A stretch of 64,000 nt of DNA. Origin: a virus. A program made the position numbers and the translations under genes. The stretch covers positions 38,670 through 102,669 of IMG/VR virus record IMGVR_UViG_3300024999_000057; one strand, written 5' to 3'. The notes below the pieces were generated by a model, which did not search any database, was not told the DNA's origin, and saw nothing but the letters and a program-made list of their open reading frames with translations. Below are positions 585 to 63,664 of this stretch, piece by piece. Positions within the stretch are counted from its first letter, which is position 1. Each line of letters begins with the position of its first letter.

Positions 585-616
585 GAATTCAGATGTGAAT
601 CCTTGGAGGAGCCAGA

Positions 617-949
617 ATGAACCACAACGACACAATTGAGCAGGGCGCCACTTTCTATCGAGAGGTGGTCCTCTACACGGACATAAGCAAAACCACACCG
701 ATCAACCTCACTGACAAGACTCCCAGAGCCTCCCTCATGACTCAGAATGGCCTGCACGTGGCAGATTTCGGGTGCGCTGTTTTGGCTGCGTTAGAAGGCA
801 AGATCGCTTGGACCATGCCTCGTGCTACCACAGCCTCACTAGAGCCTAGGCAGTACCTCTACAATTTGGATCTTGACGACGCTGACGATATCACCACCGA
901 CCGGGCTTTGTCTGGGCAGATCACGGTGAAGACCGGGCAGGTGCTTTAA
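617..949 (+). CDS. virion structural protein (BppU N-domain-like)
   Basis: IEQGATF...YLYNLDL...LSGQITV pattern common in tail-associated beta proteins; GGAGGAG RBS. Confidence 0.55.
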   Translation: MNHNDTIEQGATFYREVVLYTDISKTTPINLTDKTPRASLMTQNGLHVADFGCAVLAALEGKIAWTMPRATTASLEPRQYLYNLDLDDADDITTDRALSGQITVKTGQVL

Positions 950-1176
950 TGATCGCCGTGGTCGCGGCTAGAGCCATCTTCGGGCTGATTTTAGCTGGGC
1001 TAATCCATGCGTCGGTGGTCTCGGAGGAAATCTATTGGGGTGTAAGAGCGCCTAGAGAAATTCATTCGCTGGTGCAAACTAGGCCTCCTGCCGTGACCGC
1101 TGAGGGAAACCTCTACGACGCAACAACCGGCGCGTTTCTATACGACGCAGTTACAGGAGCGCCTTTAATGGCTTAG
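949..1176 (+). CDS. hypothetical structural-module protein
   Basis: Start overlaps the previous stop; C-terminal LYDAxTGA duplication. Confidence 0.5.
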   Translation: MIAVVAARAIFGLILAGLIHASVVSEEIYWGVRAPREIHSLVQTRPPAVTAEGNLYDATTGAFLYDAVTGAPLMA

Positions 1177-1180
1177 TGAG

Positions 1181-4895: not shown

Positions 4896-5330
4896 ATGGC
4901 ATACAACGCCGGAGTAACCCGTTATCAGAAGAAGAAGTGGATGGACGAGCTTGTGACCAAAATCGGTGCAGGTTCCCTCAAGATGTCCATCCACAGCACC
5001 ACTACCACCTGGGATGCTACTACCGATCCCTCAACCCCGCAGGTTTATGGTACTACGGGCGAACTGACTTCGACTGGCACCGGCTACACCGCAGGCGGCT
5101 ACGTGCTCACTGCAGCCAACCTCACTGCGAGCGGCAACGCCTACCAGCTTGATTTCGCAGATGTAGTTACCAGCGCAGGAACCATCGCAACCGGCACCTA
5201 CTGCGGTTGTATCTACGACACTACGGACTCCAGCCGTGTTCTGGCGATCTGCACCATGACCGTCACTCAGGCATCCGCTGGTGGTGCAATGACCTTCACC
5301 ATCCCGGCTAACGCCATTGCGCTGACCTAA
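4896..5330 (+). CDS. virion structural protein
   Basis: Thr/Gly-rich, GELTSTGTGYTAGG motif typical of small phage structural proteins; followed by a terminator. Confidence 0.6.
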   Translation: MAYNAGVTRYQKKKWMDELVTKIGAGSLKMSIHSTTTTWDATTDPSTPQVYGTTGELTSTGTGYTAGGYVLTAANLTASGNAYQLDFADVVTSAGTIATGTYCGCIYDTTDSSRVLAICTMTVTQASAGGAMTFTIPANAIALT

Positions 5331-5350
5331 TCAAATTCAGATGTGAATTT

Positions 5351-6415: not shown

Positions 6416-6613
6416 ATGAACTTAAAAATTTTAGTGCTGGCTTCCATCCTCCTGCTTCCTGGATGCGCTGCCCTAGAAACCACTGTAGAAATCCTCGACA
6501 TTCTCGTACCCGACCCCGTTCCTGTCTGTGATAGAGATTCGGTTGGAGTTGAGGTTGGTGGGGAGCAGTGCTTGAAGCTCTCGGATGGGAGTTATGTTTG
6601 GAGGTCTAGTTGA
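6416..6613 (+). CDS. small lipoprotein, o-spanin-like candidate
   Basis: AGGAGG RBS, MNLKILVLASILLLPGC lipobox, two further Cys. Confidence 0.6.
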   Translation: MNLKILVLASILLLPGCAALETTVEILDILVPDPVPVCDRDSVGVEVGGEQCLKLSDGSYVWRSS

Positions 6614-7185
6614 ATCCCGAACTTATAAAAACCTGTGCGGTCCTCTGCGACCAAAGCTATTCAGATGTGAATCCAAATTTCGTCACTGTGGACGATTTAA
6701 GGTACGGGGTTTTTGAAACAGAGCACGGAAAAATAATCTGCATCCGGGGAACGGACAATCTGGAGAATTGGGGCGTGAACGCGAATGTTTTGCCCGCGAA
6801 GTCTTGTGGTGGTTTTCTAGCCCACAAGGGGTTCATAAAAGCCTACCGAGAACTCTGCTCGGGTGGGATGCCTACGACCAAAAATCCTTCCGTCATAGCA
6901 ACTGGGCATTCTCTTGGAGGCGCCCTGGCAACTCTGCTAGCAGAGCACACAGGGTGCAAATTAATTACTTTTGGATCACCAAGAGTTTATTGGAGATTTG
7001 GAAAAGCGCCTAAATTGGATTACATCAGGATAGTAAGAGACGACGATCCGGTTCCAGAAGTTCCCAAGTTCCTCTACAGGCACACCCAGGAACCTCTTGT
7101 ATTGAAAGACGGTGACCACAGGCATTTGCAAGTCAAGGATCATTTTATGAAGTCGTACCTTGAGGCTTTAAAGGAGTTAAAATGA
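6610..7185 (+). CDS. class 3 lipase (alpha/beta hydrolase)
   Basis: IRGTD, AHKGF, TGHSLGGALA nucleophile elbow, TFGSPRV, DDPVPEVP, terminal DHF. Confidence 0.9.
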   Translation: MNPELIKTCAVLCDQSYSDVNPNFVTVDDLRYGVFETEHGKIICIRGTDNLENWGVNANVLPAKSCGGFLAHKGFIKAYRELCSGGMPTTKNPSVIATGHSLGGALATLLAEHTGCKLITFGSPRVYWRFGKAPKLDYIRIVRDDDPVPEVPKFLYRHTQEPLVLKDGDHRHLQVKDHFMKSYLEALKELK

Positions 7186-13555: not shown

Positions 13556-13981
13556 CTATTCAGATGTGAATTCATCTGGGCGAAATTCAGAAATAATAAG
13601 TTCCGCCCTTGGGTTTTCCTTGTCGATTCCGCCGAACTTGTACTCGATCTCCGGGATGAACGTGTAGTTATCGTCCTCCAGGAGCTTCAGTTCAATCAGC
13701 GCGTCATCTGCGAATTTCTGTACCACCGCTCCGATGTTTGCCAGATCGAACAGTCGCTTCGTCGAGTAGAAAATCGTGTAGGTGAATTTGTACGGAGGCT
13801 TGCCTAGCTTGCCCTCAGCCTTCTCGACTGCCTTCGCTACGATTTCCTTGTACAAGATCTTCAGCGCGTTGCTCTCGTGGTGCTGCCAGTTGCGGTAATT
13901 ATTTAGTCCGAGCGAATACTTCTTCCCTGGCTTCGTCTTCCTTGGGATGGTCACCGTTAGTGGTAATATCAGTTGATACAT
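13556..13981 (-). CDS. rusA: RusA-like Holliday junction resolvase
   Basis: RLFDLANI...KFADDAL...LEDDN...DKENPRAEL. Confidence 0.8.
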   Translation of the reverse strand: MYQLILPLTVTIPRKTKPGKKYSLGLNNYRNWQHHESNALKILYKEIVAKAVEKAEGKLGKPPYKFTYTIFYSTKRLFDLANIGAVVQKFADDALIELKLLEDDNYTFIPEIEYKFGGIDKENPRAELIISEFRPDEFTSE

Positions 13982-23156: not shown

Positions 23157-23235
23157 TTTGAGATTTTCCTTAAATAATTTGAGATAGTTGGGTTCCCTCC
23201 CTGATTTTTGAAATTCATTTGTGAATTGTTGGTGG

Positions 23236-25682: not shown

Positions 25683-25719
25683 CTGAACCTCCTTTGTTTT
25701 GTCTTCAATCCATATTTGA

Positions 25720-25748
25720 ATTCTAATTCATTTCTGACTTTTTGTCAA
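25720..25748 (-). promoter_or_regulatory. sigma70 promoter TTGACA-17-TAGAAT with operator-like sites in the spacer, at +1 and upstream
   Basis: -35 at 25743-25748, -10 at 25720-25725; palindromes at 25708, 25726, 25756. Confidence 0.85.
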
Positions 25749-25780
25749 GATAAAAATTCACTTGTGAATACTTTCTGGTG

Positions 25781-25823: not shown

Positions 25824-25852
25824 ACAATAATCTACTTCGGCCTAAATGTCAA
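25824..25852 (-). promoter_or_regulatory. sigma70 promoter TTGACA-17-TATTGT
   Basis: Same upstream context (operator + TTTTATC) as the 25748 and 54151 promoters. Confidence 0.65.
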
Positions 25853-25876
25853 GATAAAAAATTCACATCTGAATAT

Positions 25877-34038: not shown

Positions 34039-34066
34039 TTCTACCTCCCATTCAGATGTGAATTTG

Positions 34067-34549: not shown

Positions 34550-34583
34550 TTCTACCTCCCATTCAGCTGTGAATTTGATTAGG

Positions 34584-34877
34584 CTAAATTTCTAACTCCC
34601 CAGACCTACGGGCCTCATCCAAGCGCGCCTGACCTTCTTCCTTCGTCTGCAAGCGAGGCCACCACAGCCCGTCTGGTACCTTGATCCCGGTCATCATCCC
34701 GACCGGGATAGGCACTATGAAAAGGTAATTCTCGGTGCAATGCTCGACGGCCTCTTCCTCGGTCTCGAAGAGCCCTTCCAGCATCCAGCCGTTTACCTGC
34801 CCATCGTCAGCGATACCATTTACGTGTTGCCCAACCGCGTACATTTTCCTGATCTCAGGATTTTCCCACCATTTCAT
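34584..34877 (-). CDS. hypothetical cassette gene
   Basis: Start MKWWENP lies inside repeat copy 3 with GGGAGG RBS. Confidence 0.65.
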   Translation of the reverse strand: MKWWENPEIRKMYAVGQHVNGIADDGQVNGWMLEGLFETEEEAVEHCTENYLFIVPIPVGMMTGIKVPDGLWWPRLQTKEEGQARLDEARRSGELEI

Positions 34878-34923
34878 TTCTACCTCCCATTCAGATGTGA
34901 ATTTGATTAGTCGCGGGTCAGCC

Positions 34924-39467: not shown

Positions 39468-39505
39468 TTCCCCTCCTATTCATATCTGAATTTGTTCGAC
39501 CAAAA

Positions 39506-39748: not shown

Positions 39749-39794
39749 TTTACTTCTCCTATTCACTTCTGAATTTGTTTAGGCGCAAAAGCGC

Positions 39795-44426: not shown

Positions 44427-44669
44427 CTAGTCCTCCGTAGCAAATTCGATTTCGTATTCGGTTACGCTCTCGCTGTAAACCTTACTGTTGCACAAGTTCA
44501 GAAGTTCGTAGGGGAACTCGTGGCTGTCTTCAGCGTCAAACACCTCGCAGATGGTACCCACAGGAATCCCATGTTCTTCAGAGCCCTTAACGATAACTAC
44601 CCGATCTCCAACCTTAAATTTCATCCTGCCTCCAATTCACTTCATCATTTTTAATTCACACCTGAATTC

Positions 44670-47988: not shown

Positions 47989-49084
47989 AAATAAAGCGGG
48001 ATTCCTACGATGAAACCCAGGAGCGCAAAGTTTGAGATGATGCCCTCAAGAGCCAGAAGCAGCCATAGAAAAACATTTTTCTTCCCGACTAGGACCATCG
48101 CCTCCTTGCCTTCTTGCACCCAGTTAAACCCGCGCCCGAGTGTCTTTTCCGCTGCATAGCGGAGCAGCAGCCCGACCGGAATCATCCCGATGATTATTAG
48201 CAAGCAAATTAAATAAACCGGCATTCAAACCTCCATTTCTATTCAGATGTGAATTTGTTAAAGTAAAAGGTCTTCCCTGAAGTCGTCCTTGAGGATGTCC
48301 TTTTTGAGTTCTAGGTAACGCCAGAACTCGCCTGAGTTCATTGCCATCAACAAATCTGCTCGGTTAAAAGCTTCAACTATTTTGGTGTTCAACAGAAACA
48401 TCGCCTACTCCCATTCCAACTTGATGTCTTGAGTCCCGCAGCCAGAGTGCTCCAGTAGGAAGTCCGTCATTCCTGGAAACCCACCCCACCAGCCTCCTCC
48501 TGCGTTCCTCCCAAGCTTAATCCTTTCACCACATCTGGTGCAGCGGAGGTAGACGTACTCCTGATCGCGGAGCAGCGGGACATCCCCACATTCCTCGCAG
48601 AGGTATTCCTGCTTCACCTGGCCTGTAACCACCGGGCAATCCTTGTCACCGTACTTGCAGCCATGGCGGGTGCAGCAGTGAGTTGTGTGGACTCCAATTT
48701 TATCTGGTTTCATTTTTATTCCTCCCTTCGAATCTCGTATTTCACCATCCAGGTTGGATCTTTTCAAATTTAATTGCCATTGTTGGCTCCTTATTTGTAC
48801 CTCACGACTGGTTCTGCAGCATCCTCTTGACACTTCATCGGTATTAAAGATTGTCCCTCTCGCATCACCTGAATCCCGGTCACGTTGTCCTCGAAGCCGT
48901 AATTACCGTTATCGACTCTACTAGTGACCGCCAGAAATTGTAAGCCGAATTTGCAGAACGGCCTAACGAAAATTGTAGCTTGTGTGCCTCCTCTTTCGTC
49001 ACCTACTCGACGAACCTCAGTCCCTGCCTGAGCAACTCCAGTGCCGAGGCACCAGATTATAAAAGCTGCTGCGAAAATTCTCAT
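47973..49084 (-). CDS. small hypothetical genes (47973-48224 membrane, 48405-48713 Cys-rich, 48791-49084 secreted)
   Basis: ORFs with RBSs; hydrophobic or Cys patterns. Confidence 0.55.
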
Positions 49085-49094
49085 CTTCTCCTCC

Positions 49095-51107
49095 TTATTC
49101 CGCCGCTTTAATATTCAGCAGCGGCCTGATGTGGTCGATCACACTCACGGTGACTCCCTCCTGCTTTGCCAGCACGTAATTGATGTCCTTGTAGGCGGCG
49201 GGCGCCTCATCCAGGATTGAGCGGTTGGTGGAGCAGATGATGCCTTGCATCCCGTCCTTGAACTCCTGATAATCCAGCGTCTTCTTCGCTTGGTTCCTTC
49301 CCATGACCCTACCGCAGCCGTGAGATGCCGAGGAGAGATAATAGGACTCGCCCAAGCCTTCCGTGATGTACACGCCATCTCGCATGTTGGCTGGGATCAC
49401 ACCAAGCTGCCCCAGGTCCGCAGGAGTCGCTCCTTTGCGGTGCAGGACGCCCTCAGGAGTTACGACGGCGTGATTGTGGTTCTCGTTGATGACGCGGTTC
49501 GCTAACTGGTTAGGGTGCAGCCCTAGGCATTGTAGCACTTGGGTCATCATCCGCAGCCGATTCTCCAGTGCCCACTCCAGAGCGAAATTCATGTCCTGAA
49601 GATAAGCCTGTCCAAGCTCAGACTCCAGAGGGAACAACCGGCCCTTCTTCATGTACCAACCGCCGATTGTATGGCCTACGTTCCTGGACCCCGAGTGAAT
49701 CGTGACGCAGAGGTTGCCCTTCTGGTTCTCGCCAAGCTCTATGAAATGATTTCCGCCACCTAGCGTTCCGAGTTGGGTGCCAACTTTAGCCTGGACTCGC
49801 TGGTGCGTGTTAACATCCATCACGTCTGAAAACAGCACCCAATCGTAGCCTTGGTCCTTTGTATGTGAGGAGAACCCCGTAGGAATCACCTTCAGGATGT
49901 CGTTGTAGATGCCTCGGAGGGTAGTCACGCTCGCAGCCTTGATGCCTGTGTCTAACGAGCACATTCCACAGTTTCCAGTGATAAAAATCTTGTTGTTGCG
50001 CCTAGCTACGAAATATCCCGAAGGAACCGTGAAGCAATATTCTTTACCGTCTTGAGACGACACGAAGTTAATCGCCTCGTTTTTGGTTAGTCCCACATAC
50101 TCGTTTTTGGTTTTGTAAACCCACCAAGTTGAGTTCCAATCTTTCCCCTCGTAAGAGTGGCAGTGTATGCCAGTTCTGGCCCCCGCCACCGTAAAGGCAT
50201 ACTGAATTAAATCCGCATTTTGCTTGCAAGTAGCGGAAAAAGCTTCGTGCTCACCCACTGTACCATCCCAATGCAAACATTCTTCTGCAATAATTCTGAG
50301 TTGCGCTTCGCTACTTGCCCAGAAAATAGACAGGTCCTTAGTGACTCGATAGTCCCTGAAGTATATGTAGGTGCTGCCATCCACACCTACGGTTAACTCG
50401 TAATTTATTCCCGCCTGGTTAAGCAGTTCCTGGGCTCTAATTATTTTCCTCTCTTTTCTGAAGTGTAGTTCAGTGGTGCCTTGCTTTCTTATGTGCCCAT
50501 CCGCACTCACCATGACAATTACCCTGAGGATAGCATCAGTCATATCCAAATCAGGATTACTTAATTTGAACGTGGTTTTTATTCCGCCTTGTAGTCCTTT
50601 ACCTAGAGACCTGTGCTTTTCCACTAGTTCTTTAGTTGCATACACTTTGGGCTTATACCCCCGCGACTTGTATCCATGCCAGAACAGCACCTTGTGACCC
50701 GAAGACAGCATTTGATCCATGCCATCCTTGTGCCACAGATGGTAGAAGCCCTCTGATGGTTGCACCACATAACGCTGGGGTACTACAAACGATGCTTCAT
50801 CGGTAGTCGGGTTGTACTGAAGTACCTCGCCACCCCCGTATTCTGAAATTTTAACCCAACCACTAGGAGACAAAAACTCAGTGTCCTTATCAAGGCACCC
50901 GATATCGTATCCGACGAAAGAAGGAGAGATCATCCCCTCTAAAAGAGCGACTCCTCCAATCGGCAGGTCGTAACCTGCATGGACATCCGGCATGATCGCC
51001 AGCTTCTTCAGGCAATCCAATTCCAGTACATCAAAAATCTGCTGCTGAGCAGACTGCTCAATTTCCTCCAGTGGAACCGTCGAGAACAACCTGTTGAGCT
51101 TGCTCAT
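49095..51107 (-). CDS. rtcB: RtcB RNA ligase interrupted by an intein
   Basis: MPDVHAGY, GYDIG|CG, GTLGGGNHFIE, HSGSR, NHNH, HRKGA, SHGCGR, DEAPAAYK. Confidence 0.95.
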   Translation of the reverse strand: MSKLNRLFSTVPLEEIEQSAQQQIFDVLELDCLKKLAIMPDVHAGYDLPIGGVALLEGMISPSFVGYDIGCLDKDTEFLSPSGWVKISEYGGGEVLQYNPTTDEASFVVPQRYVVQPSEGFYHLWHKDGMDQMLSSGHKVLFWHGYKSRGYKPKVYATKELVEKHRSLGKGLQGGIKTTFKLSNPDLDMTDAILRVIVMVSADGHIRKQGTTELHFRKERKIIRAQELLNQAGINYELTVGVDGSTYIYFRDYRVTKDLSIFWASSEAQLRIIAEECLHWDGTVGEHEAFSATCKQNADLIQYAFTVAGARTGIHCHSYEGKDWNSTWWVYKTKNEYVGLTKNEAINFVSSQDGKEYCFTVPSGYFVARRNNKIFITGNCGMCSLDTGIKAASVTTLRGIYNDILKVIPTGFSSHTKDQGYDWVLFSDVMDVNTHQRVQAKVGTQLGTLGGGNHFIELGENQKGNLCVTIHSGSRNVGHTIGGWYMKKGRLFPLESELGQAYLQDMNFALEWALENRLRMMTQVLQCLGLHPNQLANRVINENHNHAVVTPEGVLHRKGATPADLGQLGVIPANMRDGVYITEGLGESYYLSSASHGCGRVMGRNQAKKTLDYQEFKDGMQGIICSTNRSILDEAPAAYKDINYVLAKQEGVTVSVIDHIRPLLNIKAAE
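49971..50897 (-). mobile_element. 309-aa intein with LAGLIDADG homing endonuclease
   Basis: Starts CLDKDTEFLSPSGW, ends YCFTVPSGYFVARRNNKIFITGN before extein Cys; SADG and HWDG blocks. Confidence 0.92.
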
Positions 51108-51145
51108 TTTCTCCTCCTTTAAAATTCACTTCTGAATTCCTACTC

Positions 51146-51182
51146 CAAAAGGAAGCGGCCCACAAAGAACCGCTCCCTTCCA
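51146..51182 (-). terminator. intrinsic terminator
   Basis: GGAAGGGAGCGG...CCGCTTCCTTTT on the - strand. Confidence 0.6.
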
Positions 51183-51183
51183 A

Positions 51184-51540
51184 TCAACCCTCAATAATGT
51201 CCGAGATCTCCTTCAGAACCTTCTTACCTTTAGGAGTCAGGTAAACCGCGTTCGCCTTCCGGTCGAAGGTATCGGGGCGCTGTTCGACCAACTCGTAACC
51301 CGCTTTCCTCTTAGCTCCCGTCTCGGATTCCACCAGGTAGACCGAAAGTTTTTTCACGTTTCGAGAAACGGTGCCTTGCGGCCACCCAAGTTTATCCGCT
51401 ATTTTCGGCTGGGTGATCCCATCCTCCTCAGCTATCGCTAAGAGCAGCATGACGTGCTGCAGCGGAAGTTCAGCGAAAATTTGCTCCAGCACATGCTGCG
51501 ACTTCTTGAATTTCATGAGACCCTTAGTTAAGCCAGCCAT
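51184..51540 (-). CDS. MarR-like winged-helix regulator
   Basis: LLLAIAEEDGITQPKIADKLGWPQGTVSRNVKKL...DRKANAVYLTPKGK. Confidence 0.85.
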   Translation of the reverse strand: MAGLTKGLMKFKKSQHVLEQIFAELPLQHVMLLLAIAEEDGITQPKIADKLGWPQGTVSRNVKKLSVYLVESETGAKRKAGYELVEQRPDTFDRKANAVYLTPKGKKVLKEISDIIEG

Positions 51541-51631
51541 TTCGTTTACCTCCTTGTTTATTTGGTATTTTTAAGTTAGCAATTCAAATTAGAATTTGCA
51601 TTCGATTGTGAATTGCCTAGCTTAAAAATTT

Positions 51632-51982
51632 TTAGGCTGAGGTTTTAGCCATCAGCTCCTTGAAAATCTTTTTACCCTTGACGGATAGAACCACTACGCG
51701 CTCCCGTCGATTCCCCAAACTGACCTGCAGGCGAATCAACCCAAATCCCATTTTTATGGCCTTTCCTGCCCCGTTGTGGCCTACATAAGCAGGACCCAAT
51801 AACCGCAGCATCTTGGTCAGGGTACATCTGCCAATTCGAGAAAGGTCCTTAAGTTCCGAGATCGTAATGCCCTCGTTTTCAGCCACTAGCAGAAATAAGG
51901 CCGCAAATGCTGGCGAAATGCCCTTGATTCTCTCCTTGACCAACTCCTGGAACTGCTCCGCATGATCAGGGTCGAGAGTCAT
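51632..51982 (-). CDS. MarR-like winged-helix regulator (paralog)
   Basis: LFLLVAENEGITISEL...NRRERVVVLSVKGK; GGAGG RBS before MTLDP. Confidence 0.75.
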   Translation of the reverse strand: MTLDPDHAEQFQELVKERIKGISPAFAALFLLVAENEGITISELKDLSRIGRCTLTKMLRLLGPAYVGHNGAGKAIKMGFGLIRLQVSLGNRRERVVVLSVKGKKIFKELMAKTSA

Positions 51983-52091
51983 TTCGCCTCCGCTTTTGGT
52001 ATCCATCCATTTGTGATTAAGAATACACATCTGCTTCGGAGGTGTCAAGTGGTTTCATTCAGATTTTCAAAACAAGGAGGTTCGAAATGTC

Positions 52092-52793
52092 CTACGCTTG
52101 CTTGGGAGGGCGCAGCCCGCACGAATTCTTCTCGGGGCAAAACCCAAGCGCCAGACATTTGGGACCAGCACCCTTGAATAAAACTGGGTGCACCTCCAGG
52201 CAAATCTGAAGCATCTGATTTGCTACCTCTCGAATCTCCCACTGAGCTTTAGAGCAGCAGCGCTCTCCGAAGAAGTGAAGCAACTGTCTTGCATTCATCG
52301 TCACCAGCAGTTGGGTCGCTGTAGCTTGTGGTAGGATGTAGCGGGCGTCTTCGGGAGGAACTCCTTGGTCCAGTAGGTCGAGGTAGGCGCGGTGGGCGTA
52401 GTCCAGAATCTTCTCTACGCTTATCGGAAATGGTATCCTGATATTCACCCGCCGCCCCTTGATCTTCTCAGGAACCACCACCTTGAAATTCTCTCCGACC
52501 TTCGTGTACCTCCCGGATTTGACTGAATATGAAGTTCCAACTTTGTGCCTCACCATCTGAGTCTCAGTCACGCGGCTGATCCCAGAAACTCCGAAGGTCA
52601 CCGAGAAGTGCTCCGCGATTGACTGGTGCCCGTAGCCCATGACCTGATCCATAATCGCCTCGTCGCCATCAAAGGGCTCTAAGATTTCAGCCACAGTTTT
52701 GGTCGAGGTGCAGAGTCTAGCGGCTTTAGCAGGAACCATCCGGTCCTCGGTGCAGGTCACCAGGACCACCTCAGGTTTTACTTGCTCGATCAT
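52092..52793 (-). CDS. thyX: flavin-dependent thymidylate synthase
   Basis: GHQSIAEH, ISR, VRHKVGTSYSVKSGRY, EDARYILP, MNARQL, AQWEIR. Confidence 0.95.
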   Translation of the reverse strand: MIEQVKPEVVLVTCTEDRMVPAKAARLCTSTKTVAEILEPFDGDEAIMDQVMGYGHQSIAEHFSVTFGVSGISRVTETQMVRHKVGTSYSVKSGRYTKVGENFKVVVPEKIKGRRVNIRIPFPISVEKILDYAHRAYLDLLDQGVPPEDARYILPQATATQLLVTMNARQLLHFFGERCCSKAQWEIREVANQMLQICLEVHPVLFKGAGPKCLALGFCPEKNSCGLRPPKQA

Positions 52794-53074
52794 GCAGCCA
52801 TCTCCTCTACCACAACTCCCGTCGAACTCCACTCACGATCATCCGAGCCGATTTCGTAGTTCATGTCAATCCACTTCTTGAATCGTGCTGCGAGGATTTC
52901 TCCGAAGTGGTGCATCAAAATCCGCTGGCCTATTTGTACCGGGTGCTGGGTGTTGAATGGCTTCTTCGCCTGTTCCACCAGCGAAGGCCCATACAATCTG
53001 ATTTCCCAGTGGGTGTCTTCGTACTTGATCAACTTTTTTATCTCGTCTGCAAATCTCCACACTTCGATGTGCAT
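52790..53074 (-). CDS. hypothetical protein
   Basis: GGAGG RBS preceded by an operator. Confidence 0.6.
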   Translation of the reverse strand: MHIEVWRFADEIKKLIKYEDTHWEIRLYGPSLVEQAKKPFNTQHPVQIGQRILMHHFGEILAARFKKWIDMNYEIGSDDREWSSTGVVVEEMAA

Positions 53075-53107
53075 TTACTTCCTCCTAGATTCAGATGTGA
53101 ATTCCAT

Positions 53108-53713
53108 TTAAAAATGTCGATATTCCCTAGCCAATTTCAACACTTTTCGTGAATACTTCGGGTTCCGCCTGCCCCTCTCAAATGACCCAGTGCCTAAGTT
53201 GTAGACCTGCAGGCCGTTCCGGACCCCGTACTTCATCGTGTACTCTTTTAAAAGTACAGCAGAGCACCTGATGTTAACCTCGGGATCATACTTTTCAGAC
53301 TCCTTCGTAATTAGGGGGAACCTATCGGCATGAGCTTTGAAATCTACTTGCCCCGAGCCTTTAGCGCCGGTCCTGCTTCTTGCAAATGGGTACCCCTCAG
53401 ATTCGGCAGTGATTGTCCCGACTAATAAACTCAGGTCAAGATGCTGCTCTCTTGCGGCTTTGATCGTAGCTGCTGCCTGGTACTCAGCAAGCTCGGACCA
53501 AAGCCTTTCGTTCTTCTCCATGTACCAAAGCTTCAGCCTTTGAGTCGTAGCATCAACTTCATGCTTCCTCCCTTCAAGCAAAACTTGGGCTTTTTGATCC
53601 ACCTTCCTAACATCCAAGAGCGCCTTGGTTGCGACCGCCGTTGCTGCTGCAGTTAAAATCACCAGCAGAACTCCGATCTGGGCCAGGTGAGCCACCCGGA
53701 TTTTAAGCCTCAT
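53108..53713 (-). CDS. membrane-anchored lytic transglycosylase (SLT domain)
   Basis: ITAESEG, SRTGAKGSGQV, DPEVNI, YNLG; N-terminal TM. Confidence 0.85.
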   Translation of the reverse strand: MRLKIRVAHLAQIGVLLVILTAAATAVATKALLDVRKVDQKAQVLLEGRKHEVDATTQRLKLWYMEKNERLWSELAEYQAAATIKAAREQHLDLSLLVGTITAESEGYPFARSRTGAKGSGQVDFKAHADRFPLITKESEKYDPEVNIRCSAVLLKEYTMKYGVRNGLQVYNLGTGSFERGRRNPKYSRKVLKLAREYRHF

Positions 53714-53858
53714 TCAAAACTCCTTTTCTCAAAACGTACTCCTTGTCAATCAACTCTCTGAGGATCAGGGATTTGTTGGATTTCCCTGTGCCTAGCCTAA
53801 CGAGTTCATCCAGTTTTTTCGTAGTGTCCTCGTCGAGAGCGATGCAATGCTTGACCAT
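53703..53858 (-). CDS. ribbon-helix-helix (CopG-like) regulator
   Basis: KHCIALDEDTTKKLDEL...NKSLILRELID. Confidence 0.7.
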   Translation of the reverse strand: MVKHCIALDEDTTKKLDELVRLGTGKSNKSLILRELIDKEYVLRKGVLNEA

Positions 53859-53899
53859 CACTTTTAAATCACCTCCTTTTAAATTCAGATATGAATTTG

Positions 53900-54082
53900 T
53901 TAGACGAAGAACCACGCGAAAGCGGACTTGATGATGCTCAGCGTGACTTCGTGGAAGATCAGCCATTTGATCCAGACGATACCCCAGAACAAGAAATCCA
54001 TGATTGTGAAGAAGACGCTCTGGTGGATGTGGTAGCCAATGATCGCTGTGATTGCTCCGATAAGGGTGTAGCTTACCGACAT
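53900..54082 (-). CDS. small membrane protein
   Basis: Hydrophobic 60 aa, first gene after the promoter. Confidence 0.6.
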   Translation of the reverse strand: MSVSYTLIGAITAIIGYHIHQSVFFTIMDFLFWGIVWIKWLIFHEVTLSIIKSAFAWFFV

Positions 54083-54122
54083 AATTTTGCTCCCGTTTAA
54101 AATGATTTTTAATTCAGATGTG

Positions 54123-54151
54123 AGTATATACCATCTCTAACAATAAGTCAA
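54123..54151 (-). promoter_or_regulatory. sigma70 promoter TTGACT-17-TATACT bracketed by two operators
   Basis: -35 at 54146-54151, -10 at 54123-54128; palindromes at 54112 and 54159. Confidence 0.85.
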
Positions 54152-54187
54152 GATAAAAATGCACTTGTGAATTTATCTCAGAATAGC

Positions 54188-54211
54188 AAGGGCCTCGATT
54201 AAGAGGCCCTT
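54188..54211. terminator. hairpin / terminator upstream of the promoter
   Basis: AAGGGCCTC-GATTAA-GAGGCCCTT. Confidence 0.6.
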
Positions 54212-54714
54212 CAGGAAGATTGGATATTCAATTGTGGTCCTGCTCAAACAAAAATGCTACACGCTCCAGGGGTTGTTAGGGCAAGAGCCATCTTCGTGAT
54301 CATCGCACAAAGTCTCTTGCAGCGAGTCCTTGTGATCGTCCGTGAGCATTTCTGCTACGGCTTGGAGTTGGTTGAGGTGGCGAGGACAATTTTCACAGGT
54401 AGGCAAGTGGGGCATTAAAATCTCTCCTAGTGCATTGAATTTGTGGTCGTTATACCACAACGCAAAATTATCAAAAATCAATGAAAGGTCAAACGGTTCT
54501 GCTTGCTCAGTACCTATTCAGAAGCGTATTACTTTTCAGGTAAAAAGGCAAGAGAAATCTTAGTTTCGTGTCAATTTTCTTAGTTTAAACTTAAAGAACC
54601 AATAATTTCTTGGGCTTACCCCTGAGCCAAGTTAATTACTACTAAAATGGTGATCAATATTAAATTTTAAATACTATTTAATTACCGAAGTATACCTAAA
54701 AAATCTAATTAATC

Positions 54715-55392
54715 CTACCCAATCCTCACCAGCAGATTCTTGACGCCCTGTGAAGTCCAGACCTTTTTCTTCCTGGGAGTCTGGATTCCTGCTTCAGTCA
54801 ATTGCTGAGCCAAGGCGGTTAAAGAGGTGATTCCTTGGTTCTGGAATTTGATTATTTCAGGTTTCAATTTCTCGGCGCGAAGATCCGCTTTGGTCCGGTT
54901 CTTGAGAGAGCCTTGGATTCTGCCATCTCCAAATTTGGCTTCATCTCTGTTCAAGTGGCACGCCTTGCCCAGTTGAACTCCCTTGGCCTTAGCCGCCTTC
55001 AGGCCGTTCTTGGTCCGCTCCCTGATCCTCTCCAACTCGTACTCAGCTACGCAGCCGAGCACGTTCAGTACGAACCTGCTTGTGTTGGGGAAGTCGCAGA
55101 TGATGATCTCGACTCCGGAATCCAGGATCACGGTGAGGAACGAGAGGCTCCTCGAAAGTCTGTCAAGTCTTGCTGTGATCAGCCTGCAGCCGGTCAACTC
55201 GCAGTAGTTCAGGGCCTCCTTGAGAACCGGTCTTTCCTTGTTGGAGCCAGATTCTACCTCGGTGTACTCCTTGATGACTTCGAGATTGTGACGGGTTGCG
55301 TAATCAGCAACTATGGCTCGCTGAGCGTCGAGTCCGTGTCGCTCTGACTGTCCTTTGGTTGAGACACGGCTGTAGAAAATGCACCGTTCCAT
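54715..55392 (-). CDS. small serine recombinase (resolvase/invertase family)
   Basis: YSRVST, ESGS..RP, LDRLSR, AEYELERIRERT, AKGVQLG, C-terminal DNA-binding segment. Confidence 0.93.
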   Translation of the reverse strand: MERCIFYSRVSTKGQSERHGLDAQRAIVADYATRHNLEVIKEYTEVESGSNKERPVLKEALNYCELTGCRLITARLDRLSRSLSFLTVILDSGVEIIICDFPNTSRFVLNVLGCVAEYELERIRERTKNGLKAAKAKGVQLGKACHLNRDEAKFGDGRIQGSLKNRTKADLRAEKLKPEIIKFQNQGITSLTALAQQLTEAGIQTPRKKKVWTSQGVKNLLVRIG

Positions 55393-58098: not shown

Positions 58099-58127
58099 AT
58101 TTTAATTCACTTCTGAATTTTTGTCAA
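58099..58127 (-). promoter_or_regulatory. sigma70 promoter TTGACA-17-TAAAAT with a perfect operator in the spacer
   Basis: -35 at 58122-58127, -10 at 58099-58104, palindrome at 58105-58118. Confidence 0.88.
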
Positions 58128-58302: not shown

Positions 58303-58379
58303 ACAACCCCCTGTTTTGTTTAGGTTCTAGTGTGAGAATTCACATTTCAGAACATTAAAGAATTATAATAAAAAAAGAC

Positions 58380-58475
58380 TTGACAAACTATTAGAAACCG
58401 TGGTATTTTATAAACCGGCGCTAGCCGATGAAGTTATAGGTTTATACCCCTAGTAACTGGGTAGGGATTAGCGAG
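58380..58475 (+). repeat. antisense promoter plus conserved 36-nt element, copy 1
   Basis: TTGACA..TGGTATTTT then GTTTATACCCCTAGTAACTGGGTAGGGATTAGCGAG (58440-58475). Confidence 0.75.
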
Positions 58476-58514
58476 CCTTTTACCAGAATAGTACTTGACT
58501 AATTCGATAAAGAA

Positions 58515-59353
58515 TTAATCCCTCGCTACCGAGTAGCAAACCGATTCCCAGTTGAAGGTTAATTCGAGTTCCATCGCTCCATTCTCCCAGGTCCAGAACT
58601 TGAGTTGGAATCCTCCGATTCCTAGCCGGTTGTACACCAGATGATTTGGAGCCTGGAGGATCTCCTTCAGCCTGGAGAACATCGAGCAGCAAGAGGAGCG
58701 CATCGCGCCGGTCGTAGGAACCTGAGATTCTCCGTTGGGTCCCTGATTCACCCAGGTCCACCTAGTAATCAGCATTAGGGCTCTCACCTTTTCGAAGTCG
58801 AATTTTTCCATGATTTCGGTGAAGGTATTTTCTATGTTTTGGATTTGAGTTGCGTTCATTATTTTAATCGGTTATCGTCCAGGAACCGCAGGAAGCGGTA
58901 TCCAATGTGTAGGTGTCTCGTCGTAGAAAACGCTACCGTGGACCTCGAAGCACTGATCCGGGATGTTCCAGATCATCACGAAAGGCCTCTTCAGGTGAGG
59001 ATCATAGCCGAGGATGTGGCAGTCCTTCGGAGCCGTCTCGATTGGTTGCCAGTTCATTTTTATGCCTCCTCAGCTTTTTTGATAGCCTGCTCGGCGATAA
59101 CCAGCAGGTCCGAAATATCGTTGGTGCTCATCGGGCCGAAAGCCTCCATCCCCAAAAGCCTGGCGTGAAGATCCTTCAGAGCATCCAAGAGAGCAGGAGC
59201 CTGGGAGATTAGGAGGGCGTTGGCCTCGGTTTCTCCAAGGACAAGGTAGGACAAGTTGCGCACCACCGCCACTCCCCGCCCTGCTCCCCATATCGTAGCG
59301 TATTGATTTCCATGCCCTGTTATCTCCCAAGGCCTCTTCGTGTGCTTGCTCAT
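58515..59353 (-). CDS. three accessory genes (58515-58859, 58872-59057 DUF551-like, 59060-59353)
   Basis: WQPIETAPKD...PTHWIPLP; MSKHTKRPW...ANALLISQAPALL phage families. Confidence 0.65.
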
Positions 59354-59396
59354 TTCCTACCTCCAATTATTAGAGAAAAATAATTTAATTTGCCAC

Positions 59397-59490
59397 TTGA
59401 CAAATCCCAAAAGTGTGGTACACTTAAAATCGCCGAAGGCAAAAGAAGATTATAGTTTATACCCCTAGTAGTTGAGTAGGGTTTAGCGAG
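59397..59490 (+). repeat. antisense promoter plus conserved 36-nt element, copy 2
   Basis: TTGACA..TGGTACACT then GTTTATACCCCTAGTAGTTGAGTAGGGTTTAGCGAG (59455-59490), 32/36 identical to copy 1. Confidence 0.75.
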
Positions 59491-59543
59491 GATTTGCTCT
59501 CTACTAAACCCTACTGATTTGGTGTACAATTATTTCCCTGGAT

Positions 59544-60690
59544 TTATCCCGTCACATTTAGGCCGATGAAATCCGGCCTGGATAACTCCTTCAACTTGTC
59601 AGCCACTTCCTTCGTCCCGAACTCATGGGTCCAGACGGGCCGACCGAAAAGCTCCTCGGCGTAAGCGTGCATGGCTGCGAAGCTACCGAGTAGGAATCCG
59701 GTGTAGGCTGAAACGATTGCTGCTTCTCTTTTGGTCATCTTTCAAATCTCCTTTTCCGCATTCTCTGTGGATACATCCAGAAAAGTGAATACACCTTTAG
59801 GTAAATTTTTCATTTTTAGGTCTCCTAGTTGAGCAGGCAAGCCTGCAAGAGTTCAACCAAAATTCTGAGTTGTTCGGGATCGAGGTTCATTCGGAGACCT
59901 CCTTCGGCGGATCAGGAAGGGGCATCCAGTGAGTGACCTCGTTGGTGATGCACCAACCTTCGGAGTCGGTGATGGTCCACGCTGATTCGCAGCCAGGCCA
60001 CACTTCGCAGTATGCCACGCAGATGCTTCCCGACTTTCTGTAGACAAGCACAGGGTAGCTTCGTAATGGCCCATCCCATTCCTGACGTAGTTCAGGCGGT
60101 TCATTAACGGGTTTCCAGTTTGTCTGACTCATTTTATTACTCCTTTCGTGCGTAAACCTCGCCGTCGATCACGACTTGATAGTTTTCGAGCCAGTCAGCC
60201 TCAGCCAGCCCTATCATGGAGGACTTGATTTGCGAGATGCTCGCAATGTGAAACTCCCCTTTGAATGGGAACTGGTTGTACTTACCGGGATCTCCGAGTA
60301 TTTCTACGTAAGCATAATGGTCGGTCATCTCGTCCTCTCCTTTTACCTGAATTTCGAGCGCTACACCACTTTAAATGGCACTTATAGCACAAGTGAATGG
60401 GAATGTATACGTGAATTTTAGTTTGGCCTTTGTAGGGCATCCTCGTTCGTTTCTTCCTCCCAAATCCTCTGCAGGTCGTCATCCTTGTGCCTGATGTACT
60501 CGACACCATGTGTGTTCAAGAGGAGGTTCAAATTATTCATGAGTGCCCTAACGTGTGCTTCCCGGCCTCCTGAGTTGTCGCGGAACCACTCCAGTTCCTT
60601 CCTGATCTGCTTCGCCAGCACATCCGGATCACCTACCTTATTGAGCCAGGTCAGCCGGGTTTTGATCGTTTTGATTGATGGGATGTTCAT
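59544..60690 (-). CDS. small accessory genes (59544-59738, 59887-60132 DUF551-like, 60137-60328, 60418-60690)
   Basis: ORFs with RBSs; VTHWMPLPDPP. Confidence 0.6.
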
Positions 60691-60722
60691 TTTATTTCTC
60701 CTTCAAAAATGTGAGATTTCAC

Positions 60723-61355
60723 TTAAACCCGCTCGCCGTTTTCGTAGAACTCGTACTCGTTGGCCCTGATTGCATCGTCAAGCTGCTCGTCGGAGTTCAG
60801 GTAGTCGTTCTCGGTGCTGAGTTGTTTATAAATCCAGTCCATGAAATCCCGGAGGCAAGATGCCACCTCCTCTTCAGCGGACTCAGACACGTCTTTGTAA
60901 TCGAGGCGGCTTACCTCGATGGTCGTGCTGCGTGAATGGCTGTAGTGGCCTGTGTGTTTCACCGTAGCGTGAAGTTGGTAAAAGTTAGCCTTCTGGACTT
61001 CCTGCAGTCGGGCCACGATCCGATGTAGATTCTCGTCCACAGGAGCGTAGGCTTTCAGCTCCTTCAACGCTCCTTTCTTGTAGTTGTAGTAGCCTTCGAA
61101 GCAAGCGCCATCTCCCTGCGAGTAGAATCCGGACCACCAGATGTTAGGCTCCTGCCTGGTGCCTCCTCCGTAGAGTTGCACGGAGTGGGTGGAAAACTCG
61201 ATGCCGAGGATCTCCCCTACACGAACCGCGTCTTCGATTACGTAGTCATAATCGTTCTGGTCGATTAGTTCCCTCCACCAATCCCGTGCCTTCTCCTTTG
61301 CTGATTCGGAAAGCTCGTCGAACTGGTAGGCCAATTTTGTTATTTCTCTGGGCAT
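60723..61355 (-). CDS. conserved mobile-element protein (family often labelled antitoxin of TA stability system)
   Basis: YQFDELSESAKEKARDWW, SGFYSQGDGACFEG, ANEYEFYENG. Confidence 0.65.
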   Translation of the reverse strand: MPREITKLAYQFDELSESAKEKARDWWRELIDQNDYDYVIEDAVRVGEILGIEFSTHSVQLYGGGTRQEPNIWWSGFYSQGDGACFEGYYNYKKGALKELKAYAPVDENLHRIVARLQEVQKANFYQLHATVKHTGHYSHSRSTTIEVSRLDYKDVSESAEEEVASCLRDFMDWIYKQLSTENDYLNSDEQLDDAIRANEYEFYENGERV

Positions 61356-61394
61356 TTCGTGCCTCCCTTAAAATGTGAATATTCACTTCTGAAT

Positions 61395-62433
61395 TCATAC
61401 CTTCCAAACTTGGATGGTAAATTGCTTGTCCTCCGGGAACCTCTGCTTCATTTTTTGAACTGCCTCTTCCTCTGAAGCAGCGTCGATGTAGTAGCCTTGT
61501 CTTGCTGAGGGATCTTTGTGTCCGGGGCATCCGGGATCGTAGCAATCGGGACGTGTTAGGCGGAATTGAGTCATTTTATTTCCTCCTTTTAAATGTCGAG
61601 AAATCCAGGGCCATTCCCTTCTTCGTCCTGGAGTATCCATGCGGTGGTGCCGTCGTCGAACACGAGGGCGTAGAAAACATCCCCTCCAAAGTCATCAGCT
61701 CCGTCGTCCTTAACAATCCGGACAACCCGCTTGCCCATGAGTTGACCGTAGTGTCTCATGTAAGGGTCCGAGGCCAACAAAGCAGCCTCCATCGGGTCTC
61801 CTACTTCAGGGAAGGATTGATTAACGCGGCCAATAAATTCCTTCATTGCCTCGGCCTCTTCATCGGTGAAAATCCGCTCGCCGGTCTTGATGTCCACTAC
61901 ATCGAACGGATCGTCCTCGAAGTGGTACATCTTGCCCAAGTCCTGCAACTCTTCGCAGAAGCTGTAGAAGGTCTTTTTGATGAGCGGGTTGCAGCGGTTG
62001 ATTGCTTCGATTACTTTGGACATTTTATTTCCTCCTTAAATGTGAGATTTCACTTTTTGGTTCGCTCAGTCAATTCATCGACCACCAGAATATTTGCGAA
62101 GTAATCCCCTTCATTCCCTGCGGATGAATACTTTTCCTCCACGAAATCGTCCTCTTCAAATCCCTGCTCCAGAGCGTCCCTCCTGAGTTCCTCGATGTAC
62201 TCCGGATCTGCGAAGTAGCCTTTGTAGCCCTTGTCTTTGCAGTAGTCGGCTATGGCGTCATGACAGGCGCTGAGATCTGAGCTCCCGTGAATCAGGAATC
62301 CAGCCGAGACATAGCAGCCGGTATCAAGCCAGATGATGTAGGTATTGGGCCAGAAATGCTTGTCCTCGGGATTTACGTAGTCGATGGCTCTACGGTAGTC
62401 TTTTAATCTGGTGGCGAAGTCTTTGCGGTTCAT
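61395..62433 (-). CDS. three accessory genes (61395-61574, 61589-62023, 62050-62433)
   Basis: Each has a strong RBS and junction motifs. Confidence 0.6.
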
Positions 62434-62775
62434 AATGCCTCCCCTTAAAAAATGTGAAATCTCACTTTTCCTACCTAAACATCCAGCTACACAAAACCAA
62501 CCCGCTAATCACAACCATCAAAACCAGGATCTGTCCAATGATAGTTTCTTCGTCTCTTTTGGCTGCGAGTTCGGCACGTTGTTTTAAAACGGTGTGAGAA
62601 ACGTAGTTCACGAAACCACCTCCACTCTCTCGCTACGAAGATCGACCCAAGCCAATCCATCGTTAAACTGCACCAAAACCATATCCGCCAATTCTTCAAG
62701 GCAGGTTCCACATCCGGTTCCTGCGACGAAAACTTGTTTATTTTTCATTTTTAGTTCTCCTTTAAATGTGAGAAT

Positions 62776-63456
62776 TCACTTTCTTCCCATTACCATCTTC
62801 ACGGCTTCATCCGCCAGTTTCCCGAAGTCAATCTCAGGAGCATACGCCGCCGCATACGCCGCCGCCCTCGCCGCATACGCCGCCCTCGCCGCATACGCCG
62901 CATACGCCGCATACGCCGCCGCCCTCGCCGCATACGCCGCCGCCCTCGCCGCATACGCCGCCGCATACGCCGCCGCCCTCGCCGCATACGCCGCCCTCGC
63001 CGCATACGCCACCGAAGGATTCTTCAGATACTCCTTCGCAGCTTCGACAGCTTTCCGAGGCCTGTCGTCTCCAGGCATGACATCCTCGAAGTGGTGCAAA
63101 ACCACCTCAGCACATAGGATAGCGAAGGCGACCCGAACCAGCTGTTCCTTCTCCGATCCTACCCACTTAGGCAACTTCAACTCCTTCACGACTTCCTGGG
63201 TCAAGCTACCTACTTTCCCGAAGTCGTGACAAACTACGGCGCCTTTAATCTCCCAAAGTTTTGGGTTGCTAATATCCGCATGAATCGGGTTAAGGAGGAA
63301 CACCAGGTTCTTGTTCCTGTACGCATGGAGCACGTCGGAGGAACAGAGTCGCGGATTATCCTTTTTAGGCTTGGTGTGGATCTTTTCGACTTCGCCGTAG
63401 GGGTAGCCGTTGTAGGTGGTTCCGTCTTGATTAGTGAGTTTGAATAATTTCTGCAT
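62776..63456 (-). CDS. Imm5-like domain protein with Ala/Tyr/Arg low-complexity repeat
   Basis: LCSSDVLHAY, CAEVVLHHFE...DDRPRKAVEAAK, AAYAAR repeats. Confidence 0.65.
   Translation of the reverse strand: MQKLFKLTNQDGTTYNGYPYGEVEKIHTKPKKDNPRLCSSDVLHAYRNKNLVFLLNPIHADISNPKLWEIKGAVVCHDFGKVGSLTQEVVKELKLPKWVGSEKEQLVRVAFAILCAEVVLHHFEDVMPGDDRPRKAVEAAKEYLKNPSVAYAARAAYAARAAAYAAAYAARAAAYAARAAAYAAYAAYAARAAYAARAAAYAAAYAPEIDFGKLADEAVKMVMGRK
62840..63010. repeat. coding tandem repeat (GCCGCATAC / GCCGCCCTC units)
   Basis: Directly visible 9-12 nt units. Confidence 0.95.
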
Positions 63457-63664
63457 TTTGATCTCCTTTAGGTTAAAATGTGAGAATTCACTTTTGCCTT
63501 CAAATCCACTTCTGAATTTATCAGGGCATGAAAATAGCCACGGTGTAGTGATAGCCGTAGTTCATGTACCAATCCCAGGTCGTTTTGATTCGTTTGGTTT
63601 TGCCTGATTTTAGTTTGACTTCGCAGATGATGGACATTTTTAGTCCTCCCTAAAATGTGAGATT

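Follow-up and report, generated by a model that had tools for sequence, protein, structure and literature searches.

A 14-bp palindrome repeated at the promoters and gene starts of an uncultured phage: a possible repressor operator

Short palindromes repeated throughout the genome recur in phages, and their function is unproven. Cluster O mycobacteriophages, for example, carry 34 copies of a 17-bp dyad, TGTTCGG-N3-CCGAACA, and 8-9 SigA promoters, and the function of the dyad is unknown (PMC4351075). In Cluster A mycobacteriophages, one repressor acts at an operator at the early promoters and at dozens of elongation-stopping sites (stoperators) in short intergenic gaps throughout the genome; from one phage to a related one the consensus of the site varies, and site and repressor evolve jointly (PMC9283540, PMC6550527). 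Here we describe a 14-bp palindrome, ATTCA-N4-TGAAT, in a 64,000-bp stretch of phage DNA (the window) that comprises positions 38670-102669 of the IMG/VR record IMGVR_UViG_3300024999_000057. The whole record, 102,669 bp, is referred to as G000, and coordinates are those of the window unless marked as genome coordinates. The palindrome is a real and striking instance of a known but poorly understood phage-wide signal.

G000 is an incomplete contig with tandem repeats at both ends, and our gene calls on it are crude. In an exact-word scan of IMG/VR, contigs with multiple copies of ATTCA-N4-TGAAT were found only in a single run of consecutively numbered samples. The longest of these, G001, spans 82.6 kb; it is collinear with G000, and the nucleotide identity between the two is 70-90%. 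Three distant relatives, G006, G007 and G008, were obtained through an alignment of polymerases (A1).

Number, sequence and position of the palindrome

One specific palindrome is enriched in G000. The window contains 22 perfect copies of ATTCA-N4-TGAAT, whereas dinucleotide-preserving shuffles of the window averaged 0.08 copies, with at most one in any shuffle. The whole of G000 contains 32 perfect and 15 one-mismatch copies, and the reversed control pattern is present once. An earlier sequence-only reading of the window had listed 21 or more perfect copies and seven with one mismatch. A pattern search placed all 21 where they had been reported and found one that had been overlooked (28956); the number of one-mismatch copies in the window is nine rather than seven. 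In a census of every 5-bp-arm palindrome in G000 with loops of 0-8 bases, this motif was the only one enriched, and the runner-up (13 copies) was the same motif plus one base. Because no other palindrome was enriched, we conclude that one specific sequence is used or read, and not hairpins generally.

The arms are symmetric and the core is not. As the sequence-only reading had noted, the core is biased: GATG/CATC and GAAG/CTTC together account for 21 of the 32 cores. Core positions 6 and 9 match each other in 24 sites and are complementary in 3, and the only copy with a fully symmetric core is that at genome 9710. The asymmetric core is found in both orientations relative to transcription, and in about half of the copies at gene junctions (see below) the purine-rich strand is the sense strand. 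The flanks of the sites are 69% A+T, compared to 50% for the genome. Avoidance of GATC was considered as a cause of the asymmetric core and was rejected; GATC is not depleted in the genome.

Copies of the palindrome occupy fixed positions on sigma70-type promoters. We scanned G000 for a TTGACA-like hexamer followed by a 16-18-bp spacer and a TAnnnT -10 sequence. Twelve intergenic TTGAC-type promoters were found, and eight of them have copies of the motif, with 13 copies at three fixed registers. In the first register, at -20 to -23 from the first base of the -35 hexamer, the copy ends 6-9 bp upstream of the -35 and its center is approximately 50 bp upstream of the start site. In the second, at +9, the copy exactly fills the 17-bp spacer after three bases. 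In the third, at +26/+27, the copy is just beyond the -10. The upstream copy is approximately 30 bp (three helical turns) from the spacer copy. The promoters in the window that have these sites, with the sites on each, are as follows.

25720-25748, - strand, promoter TTGACA-17-TAGAAT with all three registers occupied (sites span 25708-25769)
25756, perfect site 7 nt upstream of the -35 of this promoter
25726, one-mismatch site (perfect in G001) that fills its spacer
25708, one-mismatch site just beyond its -10
25861-25874, - strand, perfect site 8 nt upstream of the -35 of a second promoter (25824-25852)
54123-54151, - strand, promoter TTGACT-17-TATACT with two one-mismatch sites (54112-54172)
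54159, one-mismatch site (perfect in G001) 7 nt upstream of the -35 of this promoter
54112, one-mismatch site over its -10/+1
58099-58127, - strand, promoter TTGACA-17-TAAAAT with its spacer filled by the perfect site 58105-58118

Spacer copies are also present in the integrase promoter (genome 8216) and in a left-end promoter (genome 1499), and the copy at genome 9710 sits between two divergent -35 hexamers and is common to both promoters. The sequence-only reading had described copies filling spacers (58105 and 25726) and lying upstream of the -35 (25756, 25861 and 54159), and the scan found all five in these places. It had also placed two copies over the start site. This holds for 54112; at 44654 there is an adjacent TAAAAT but no -35 hexamer was found. 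Thus, on eight promoters, copies have a reproducible register at the -35, spacer, -10 or start site, as expected of a repressor operator, and every one of these layouts is retained in G001.

Four of the 12 intergenic promoters have no full copy: one (52020-52048) before the gene for a MarR-like protein, MarR-B, one upstream of an Xis-like gene (genome 8668), and two on the + strand at the right end. A ninth promoter (genome 37442) has merely a two-mismatch copy, in the upstream register. The two + strand promoters, at 58380-58409 and 59397-59424, are strong and antisense to the right-end genes, all of which are on the minus strand.

The arms of the motif are conserved. G001 (80% identical) has 26 perfect copies. 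We compared the 16 orthologous sites that gave long alignments, all of them selected for being perfect in G000. Identity between G000 and G001 was 98% in the arms, 91% in the core and 85-88% in the 30-bp flanks, and the comparison indicates that the arms are under constraint. Three promoter copies have one mismatch in G000 and are perfect in G001, which is the pattern expected if selection keeps the sites near the consensus.

Most copies are between genes. Gene interiors make up 73% of the genome, and 28 of the 32 perfect copies are outside them (p = 2e-12); the other four are in a tail-region gene and the genes for a class-3 lipase, a DNA ligase and DnaB. The sequence-only reading was right about the two intragenic copies that it reported (lipase, 6659; DnaB, 42657) and missed a third in the window, that in the ligase gene (28956). 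About half of the copies (approximately 16) end 10-21 nt 5' of a start codon and touch the Shine-Dalgarno sequence. At these junctions there is typically an upstream stop codon, the palindrome directly after it, and then a GGAGG-type Shine-Dalgarno sequence, so that the copy occupies the gap between one gene and the ribosome-binding site of the next. Many copies are therefore in short intergenic gaps of operons genome-wide, as in a stoperator network. The remaining perfect sites in the window, first those at junctions, then the intergenic ones and last those within genes, are as follows.

587-600, 16 nt before the ATG at 617 (+ strand), with GGAGG between
13558-13571, - strand, followed by AGGAG and 10 nt distant from a TTG start at 13547
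30459-30472, 13 nt before the - strand ATG at 30445
34050, 34561 and 34889 (span 34050-34902), - strand, three sites, each 11 nt before a start, in near-identical units of stop, palindrome, GGGAGG, TAGAA and ATG
39478-39491, 10 nt before the start of an RNA-ligase-like gene (38064-39467)
39761-39774, 12 nt before the - strand start at 39748
48241-48254, 16 nt before the ATG at 48224
51124-51137, 16 nt before the start of the RtcB gene at 51107
53089-53102, 14 nt before the ATG at 53074
53883-53896, 21 nt before a ribbon-helix-helix gene
5335-5348, intergenic, right after the stop of 4896-5330 and 46 nt before a CHAP endolysin gene
23213-23226, intergenic, kept in G001
44654-44667, intergenic, with TAAAAT directly after it on the - strand, 29 nt before the ATG at 44624
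61381-61394, 25 nt before the ATG at 61355, overlapping a copy of a second palindrome (described below), GTGAATATTCAC, at 61375
6659-6672, within the class-3 lipase gene (6610-7185)
28956-28969, within the ATP-dependent DNA ligase gene
42657-42670, within the DnaB-like helicase gene, with GGAGGA and TTG after it on the - strand

The copy in the DnaB gene is kept in G001. The frame that opens at the TTG in this gene (42620-42670, - strand) is only 43 amino acids and so does not give a shorter helicase. The RtcB homologue (49095-51107) is 670 amino acids long, with approximately 370 unassigned N-terminal residues before the best match to the RtcB domain; the RtcB homologues of G006 and G007 are approximately 370 amino acids.

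An alternative is that the palindrome acts in RNA, as a hairpin 5' of the ribosome-binding site that is bound or cut by a protein and controls translation, processing or mRNA stability. The ending of about half of the copies 10-21 nt before a start codon is consistent with this, the palindromes of G000 and of its three distant relatives (below) can all be written as a stem of 5-7 bp that closes a 4-nt loop, and the phages encode the RNA-repair enzymes RtcB and RNA ligase. However, the predicted hairpin is weak: the 14-mer has -1.5 kcal/mol, and A/U extensions take this to -3.3 to -4.9 at most. The hairpin of G006 reaches -10.3, so that stability is not conserved. The loop sequences are in both orientations relative to the sense strand, and G000 has neither copies with compensating changes in the arms nor alternative arms, contrary to what a stable structure would predict. 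Copies in spacers or upstream of a -35 cannot act in RNA made from those promoters. We consider an RNA element improbable. Because the RNA hairpin is weak, the core is asymmetric, and the spacer and upstream copies cannot act through their own RNA, we favor a two-fold symmetric reader of double-stranded DNA.

Two other explanations were dropped. One was extended pairing of the Shine-Dalgarno region; to our knowledge, the motif is not complementary to the 3' end of 16S rRNA. The other was a promoter for a phage polymerase; no phage RNA polymerase turned up in the part of the proteome that was scanned.

The junction units could instead mark crossovers through which the phage gains, loses or exchanges one gene at a time, with homologous recombination or its small serine recombinase as the agent. 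The one clean case is the Dam-methylase gene (34069-34545), which G001 lacks and which in G000 forms a single-gene cassette with a near-identical junction unit on either side. Several copies persist as 38-58-bp islands of homology between G000 and G001 amid unrelated flanks. Of 94 synteny breakpoints, 9 are within 30 bp of a copy, compared to 2.2% at random, and both G000 and G006 encode a resolvase-type recombinase. This excess of breakpoints is, however, about that expected if breakpoints and copies are both at gene boundaries, with no clear excess over gene boundaries generally. A site of fourteen bases is small for a serine recombinase, homologues of this enzyme are missing from G007 and G008, and the fixed promoter registers are left unexplained. 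We therefore give little credence to recombination joints, and recombination at the repeats is likely a side effect and not the main function.

Both of these alternatives, the RNA hairpin and the recombination site, had been raised in the sequence-only reading and are made less probable by the analysis. Its leading idea, one dimeric protein at dispersed DNA sites, is the best supported by the fixed registers, the occurrence of the core both ways, the weak hairpin and the single arm sequence.

Based on these comparisons, we propose that ATTCA-N4-TGAAT is the operator of one phage-encoded dimeric repressor, a reading that we regard as evenly poised. For the promoter copies by themselves, action as operators is probable. 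A dimer bound in the spacer or over the -10/+1 would block host RNA polymerase, and the upstream copy would give cooperative binding with the spacer copy. At the approximately 16 copies between stop codon and Shine-Dalgarno sequence, the same protein would be a roadblock to elongation, much like a stoperator. The joint effect would be to silence the early, replication, late and integrase transcription units in the prophage. The roadblock role of the junction copies is plausible if somewhat doubtful, and the promoter part of the model is much better supported than the roadblock part.

Candidate binding proteins and prophage genes

We looked for the protein that might read the palindrome by Pfam scans over approximately 90 phage proteins. 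The DNA-binding candidates were two adjacent MarR-like paralogues, a ribbon-helix-helix protein, a sigma-region-4-like protein, a serine recombinase and HNH endonucleases. No repressor of the CI/S24 or XRE type was detectable in six-frame searches of G000. The features that bear on the choice of a reader are as follows.

51184-51540, - strand, MarR-A, a 118-aa MarR-family winged-helix protein and the lead candidate binder
51582-51613, - strand, two adjacent one-mismatch sites, 41-59 nt upstream of the MarR-A gene, with centers 18 bp apart
51632-52048, - strand, MarR-B, paralogous to MarR-A but distinct from it in the recognition helix
53703-53861, - strand, a 52-aa ribbon-helix-helix protein, the second candidate binder

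MarR-A matches Pfam MarR_2 with E = 1.2e-8, above the curated cut-off, and its profile matches solved chains of MarR, SlyA, TcaR and MepR. Its recognition helix, PQGTVSRNVKKL, is identical in G001 and nearly identical in G006. The pair of sites upstream of the MarR-A gene, which differs in G001 at one of 36 bases, comprises candidate autoregulatory operators. These two sites are conserved and degenerate, no promoter was mapped there, and 118 amino acids is short for the family.

The promoters of G006 have an element similar to the motif. G006 has no ATTCA-N4-TGAAT and five copies of AATCACATCTGCAT, which has 12 of 14 bases in common with the most common form in G000. These copies precede -35 hexamers by 7-10 bp, which is where the upstream copies of G000 are also found. 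The element, AATCAC(A/T)(T/A)CTGCAT, is at the promoters at 1058, 8974, 24185, 31460 and 54325 of G006 and is a poor palindrome; the promoters that bear it are strong (TTGACA-17-TGgTATAAT).

In the proposed mechanism the reader would be MarR-A, possibly together with MarR-B, with the ribbon-helix-helix protein as the alternative. That MarR-A reads the palindrome is a reasoned guess, and a somewhat doubtful one. A heterodimer of MarR-A and MarR-B could, as a speculation, explain the asymmetric core. The beta-strand of the ribbon-helix-helix protein is identical in G001 and different in the syntenic homologue of G006, and its gene directly follows a junction palindrome in both G000 and G006.

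The sigma-region-4-like protein was rejected as the binder; its recognition helix differs between G000 and G001, although the motif is common to both. A homologue of MarR (L405, 29% identity) has no enriched palindrome on its 14-kb contig. In three unrelated groups of prophages in isolate genomes, paired copies of ATTCA-N4-TGAAT bracket a TTGAC-type promoter beside a gene for a CI-like helix-turn-helix/S24 repressor (L173, 10218-10272; L131, 6665-6713; L122, 6279-6327). Judged by the genomic context of these pairs, palindromes of this class serve as repressor operators elsewhere. The proteins beside these pairs have no homologue in G000, and a repressor shared with these prophages was rejected.

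G000 also has genes consistent with lysogeny. It encodes an integrase, whose promoter has a copy of the palindrome in the spacer, and at genome 8485-8533 (L119), beside the integrase gene, the motif directly adjoins 39 nt that resemble the 5' half of tRNA-Gln (CUG) and are the probable attP core. The sequence-only reading had suggested that one protein could silence or organize the whole genome and had called this unexpected for the phage. Silencing is less surprising given the integrase and the attP-like piece, and both support the suggestion; as described below, silencing cannot be the whole story for the junction copies. The Xis-like gene next to the integrase has no Pfam match, and its label is from reading of the sequence. 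A repeat, TTGCAATAATTGA, is present three to four times around the integrase and Xis-like genes (genome 8221-8250, 8570-8598 and 9026-9052; L119) and could represent arm-type recombinase sites or another operator.

Junction palindromes in distant relatives

We compared G000 with more distant relatives. A megablast of 20 kb against 50,697 named phages gave no match, and the polymerase of G000 is at most 30% identical to that of any named phage. Polymerases that are 55-67% identical to that of G000 exist (P0002-P0015). A scan of IMG/VR with one single protein found no relative, and a metagenome scan found no additional lineage. G006, G007 and G008 have no copies of ATTCA-N4-TGAAT. In each of them a palindrome of its own is enriched, and nearly all copies are a few bases 5' of a Shine-Dalgarno sequence (percentages are for the polymerase).

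G006, 63.7 kb, incomplete, 47%: (G)TGCGACATGTCGCA(C), TGCGA-CATG-TCGCA, 28 copies
G006, second palindrome: TTTGCGTCC-N-GGACGCAAA (TTTGCGTCCnGGACGCAAA), 10 copies, at one end only (60-63.5 kb)
G007, 105.7 kb, 35%: (TA)GGTAATTACC(TA), 26 copies
G008, 114.7 kb, 41%: (GT)TAGATATCTA(AC), 16 copies, confined to 91-112 kb

All of these can be read as 5-N4-5 except the 9-N1-9 repeat in the end region of G006. By CheckV estimate, G007 is 93% and G008 100% complete. A second junction palindrome, AAATGTGA-N4-TCACTTT, is present in both G000 and G001, each copy a few bases before a Shine-Dalgarno sequence. G000 has eight copies in all, seven of them at the right end (58332-63491, - strand), and G001 has 12 (48356-55114). 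The eighth match in G000 is GTGA-N4-TCAC at 10786.

A lineage-specific palindrome before ribosome-binding sites is a trait of the family that is independent of lysogeny and of MarR, because G007 and G008 have it with neither an integrase nor a MarR match. It follows that a prophage-silencing repressor cannot wholly explain the junction copies. G000 is special in having one sequence at both promoters and junctions.

The relatives suggested another explanation, a family-wide code for sets of genes. Every lineage would label these sets with a 14-bp palindrome of its own, and a small phage protein that evolves fast would read the label and turn gene classes on or off in lytic growth; G000 would have come to use one sequence both for this code and for promoter operators. 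The 28, 26 and 16 copies in G006, G007 and G008 near Shine-Dalgarno sequences, the confinement of a second palindrome to one end region both in G000/G001 and in G006, and the lack of an integrase in G007 and G008 are consistent with such a code. However, none of the proteins common to the four lineages resembles a sequence-specific binder, and no binder common to all four was found among the conserved proteins. In addition, a compact genome puts any intergenic element beside a Shine-Dalgarno sequence, making position alone weak proof, and the promoter and junction copies of G000 are indistinguishable by sequence. We think that this explanation is unlikely. A broader and still rather doubtful version is that lineage-specific 5-N4-5 palindromes at the 5' edge of ribosome-binding sites are an address code for gene sets in a family of approximately 100-kb uncultured phages, with two codes per genome and small, fast-evolving DNA-binding readers, and that G000 has combined one of its codes with the promoter operators of a MarR-type immunity repressor.

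The palindrome might also be the site of a global regulator of the host, borrowed to time phage expression. G000 and G006, which are similar in G+C content, have the motif-like element upstream of promoters in common, and palindromes differ among lineages of different G+C content. However, the junction palindromes of G000 and G006 differ despite the common promoter element, and it is a phage-encoded MarR with a conserved recognition helix that tracks this element. In a scan for paired sites in one genome per prokaryotic species, there were, among the matches listed, scattered unrelated ones and neither a host signal nor a related prophage. We consider a host factor very improbable. In G008, where the palindrome (GTTAGATATCTAAC-like) has the signature of MepR, a MarR reader is unsupported; no MarR was detectable there. 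G008 also encodes a Mom-family DNA-modification protein (E = 1e-40) and a TerB-domain protein (small-protein alignment A3).

Several observations weigh against the proposal of a single repressor or against MarR-A as that repressor. A simple homodimer would not lead one to expect the preferred core, G-W-W-G, which is non-symmetric. Three copies are flanked by a stop codon and a terminator, and it is not obvious what a roadblock would do there. Choosing sites that are perfect in G000 introduced some bias into the conservation test. The recognition helix of the G006 MarR is the same as that of G000, yet the junction palindrome of G006 is quite different. The palindromes of G006, G007 and G008 are absent from their sigma70-type promoters, and in G007 and G008 we found neither a tyrosine integrase nor a significant match to MarR. 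The choice of MarR-A is circumstantial and its binding putative, and the junction copies may form a separate, family-wide system with another function.

The ends of G000 provide an observation about the record itself. The left end (genome 1-100) is a tandem repeat of a 24-mer, TCACACCCTACAGCTCGCCCTCGG, and the right end (63901-64000; genome 102570-102669) a tandem repeat of an 11-mer-like unit, CCGAGTCCCACA. G001 reads across the junction of the two ends with approximately 3.7 kb of extra sequence, so that the G000 sequence probably stopped within repeats, leaving a contig that is incomplete or permuted.

Comparison with described systems

The positional evidence for operator action in G000 is unusually direct: three fixed registers on eight promoters, one copy common to two divergent promoters, and another in the promoter of the integrase. 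G000 also supplies a named candidate protein that can be tested and relatives in which the sequence of the palindrome has switched. If MarR-A does bind the palindrome, this would be a MarR-family protein as a phage immunity repressor with a genome-wide set of operators, and a handle on joint change of repressor and operator specificity in large uncultured phages.

KorA and KorB of the IncP plasmid RK2 are dimeric global repressors whose short palindromic operators occur 7-12 times at varied distances from promoters. They differ from the system in G000 in being plasmid-encoded, in that KorB belongs to the ParB family, and in that their operators are not known to lie at ribosome-binding sites.

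Among phages, the sequence-only reading had likened the palindrome to stoperators and to the start-associated sequences of Cluster K, and as a way of working the likeness is apt. Stoperators, recognized by L5 gp71 and its relatives, are the closest mechanism (PMC9283540, PMC6550527). However, they are 13-bp, asymmetric sites that are read by a monomer and oriented relative to transcription (PMC9283540), whereas the site in G000 is a palindrome that is not oriented. The reader in G000 is likely from a protein family other than that of the Cluster A repressor.

The start-associated sequences (SAS) and extended start-associated sequences (ESAS) of Cluster K are, like the junction copies, repeats immediately 5' of many start codons (PMC3203893). 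The ESAS is an inverted repeat whose consensus varies by subcluster, and its authors favor DNA-binding proteins that differ in specificity over RNA hairpins (PMC3203893). Unlike the palindrome in G000, which is upstream of the Shine-Dalgarno sequence and does not contain it, the SAS is asymmetric, contains the Shine-Dalgarno sequence, lies 3-7 bp from the start codon, and is found only in the non-structural half of the genome and not on promoters; the ESAS has 17-bp arms and a variable spacer (PMC3203893).

The operator of MepR, a MarR-family protein, has the same 5-N4-5 layout, GTTAG-N4-CTAAC (PMC3936728). The wings of MepR sit in A+T-rich flanks, the operators overlap the -35, -10 and start site, and two of them abut on one promoter (PMC3936728). 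Unlike the system in G000, MepR is a cellular regulator with three sites, no genome-wide array and another arm sequence (PMC3936728). MarR-A is shorter than MepR (118 amino acids) and distantly related to it.

The closest published phenomenon is the Cluster O repeat. Like the palindrome in G000, it occurs over 30 times per genome, mostly in intergenic positions or near the 5' ends of genes, with inverted arms that do not vary, a short, variable, asymmetric center, no bias in orientation relative to transcription, and copies beside a handful of SigA-type promoters (PMC4351075). It differs in being 7-N3-7 rather than 5-N4-5 and in its host group, and neither fixed promoter registers nor a candidate binder has been described for it (PMC4351075).

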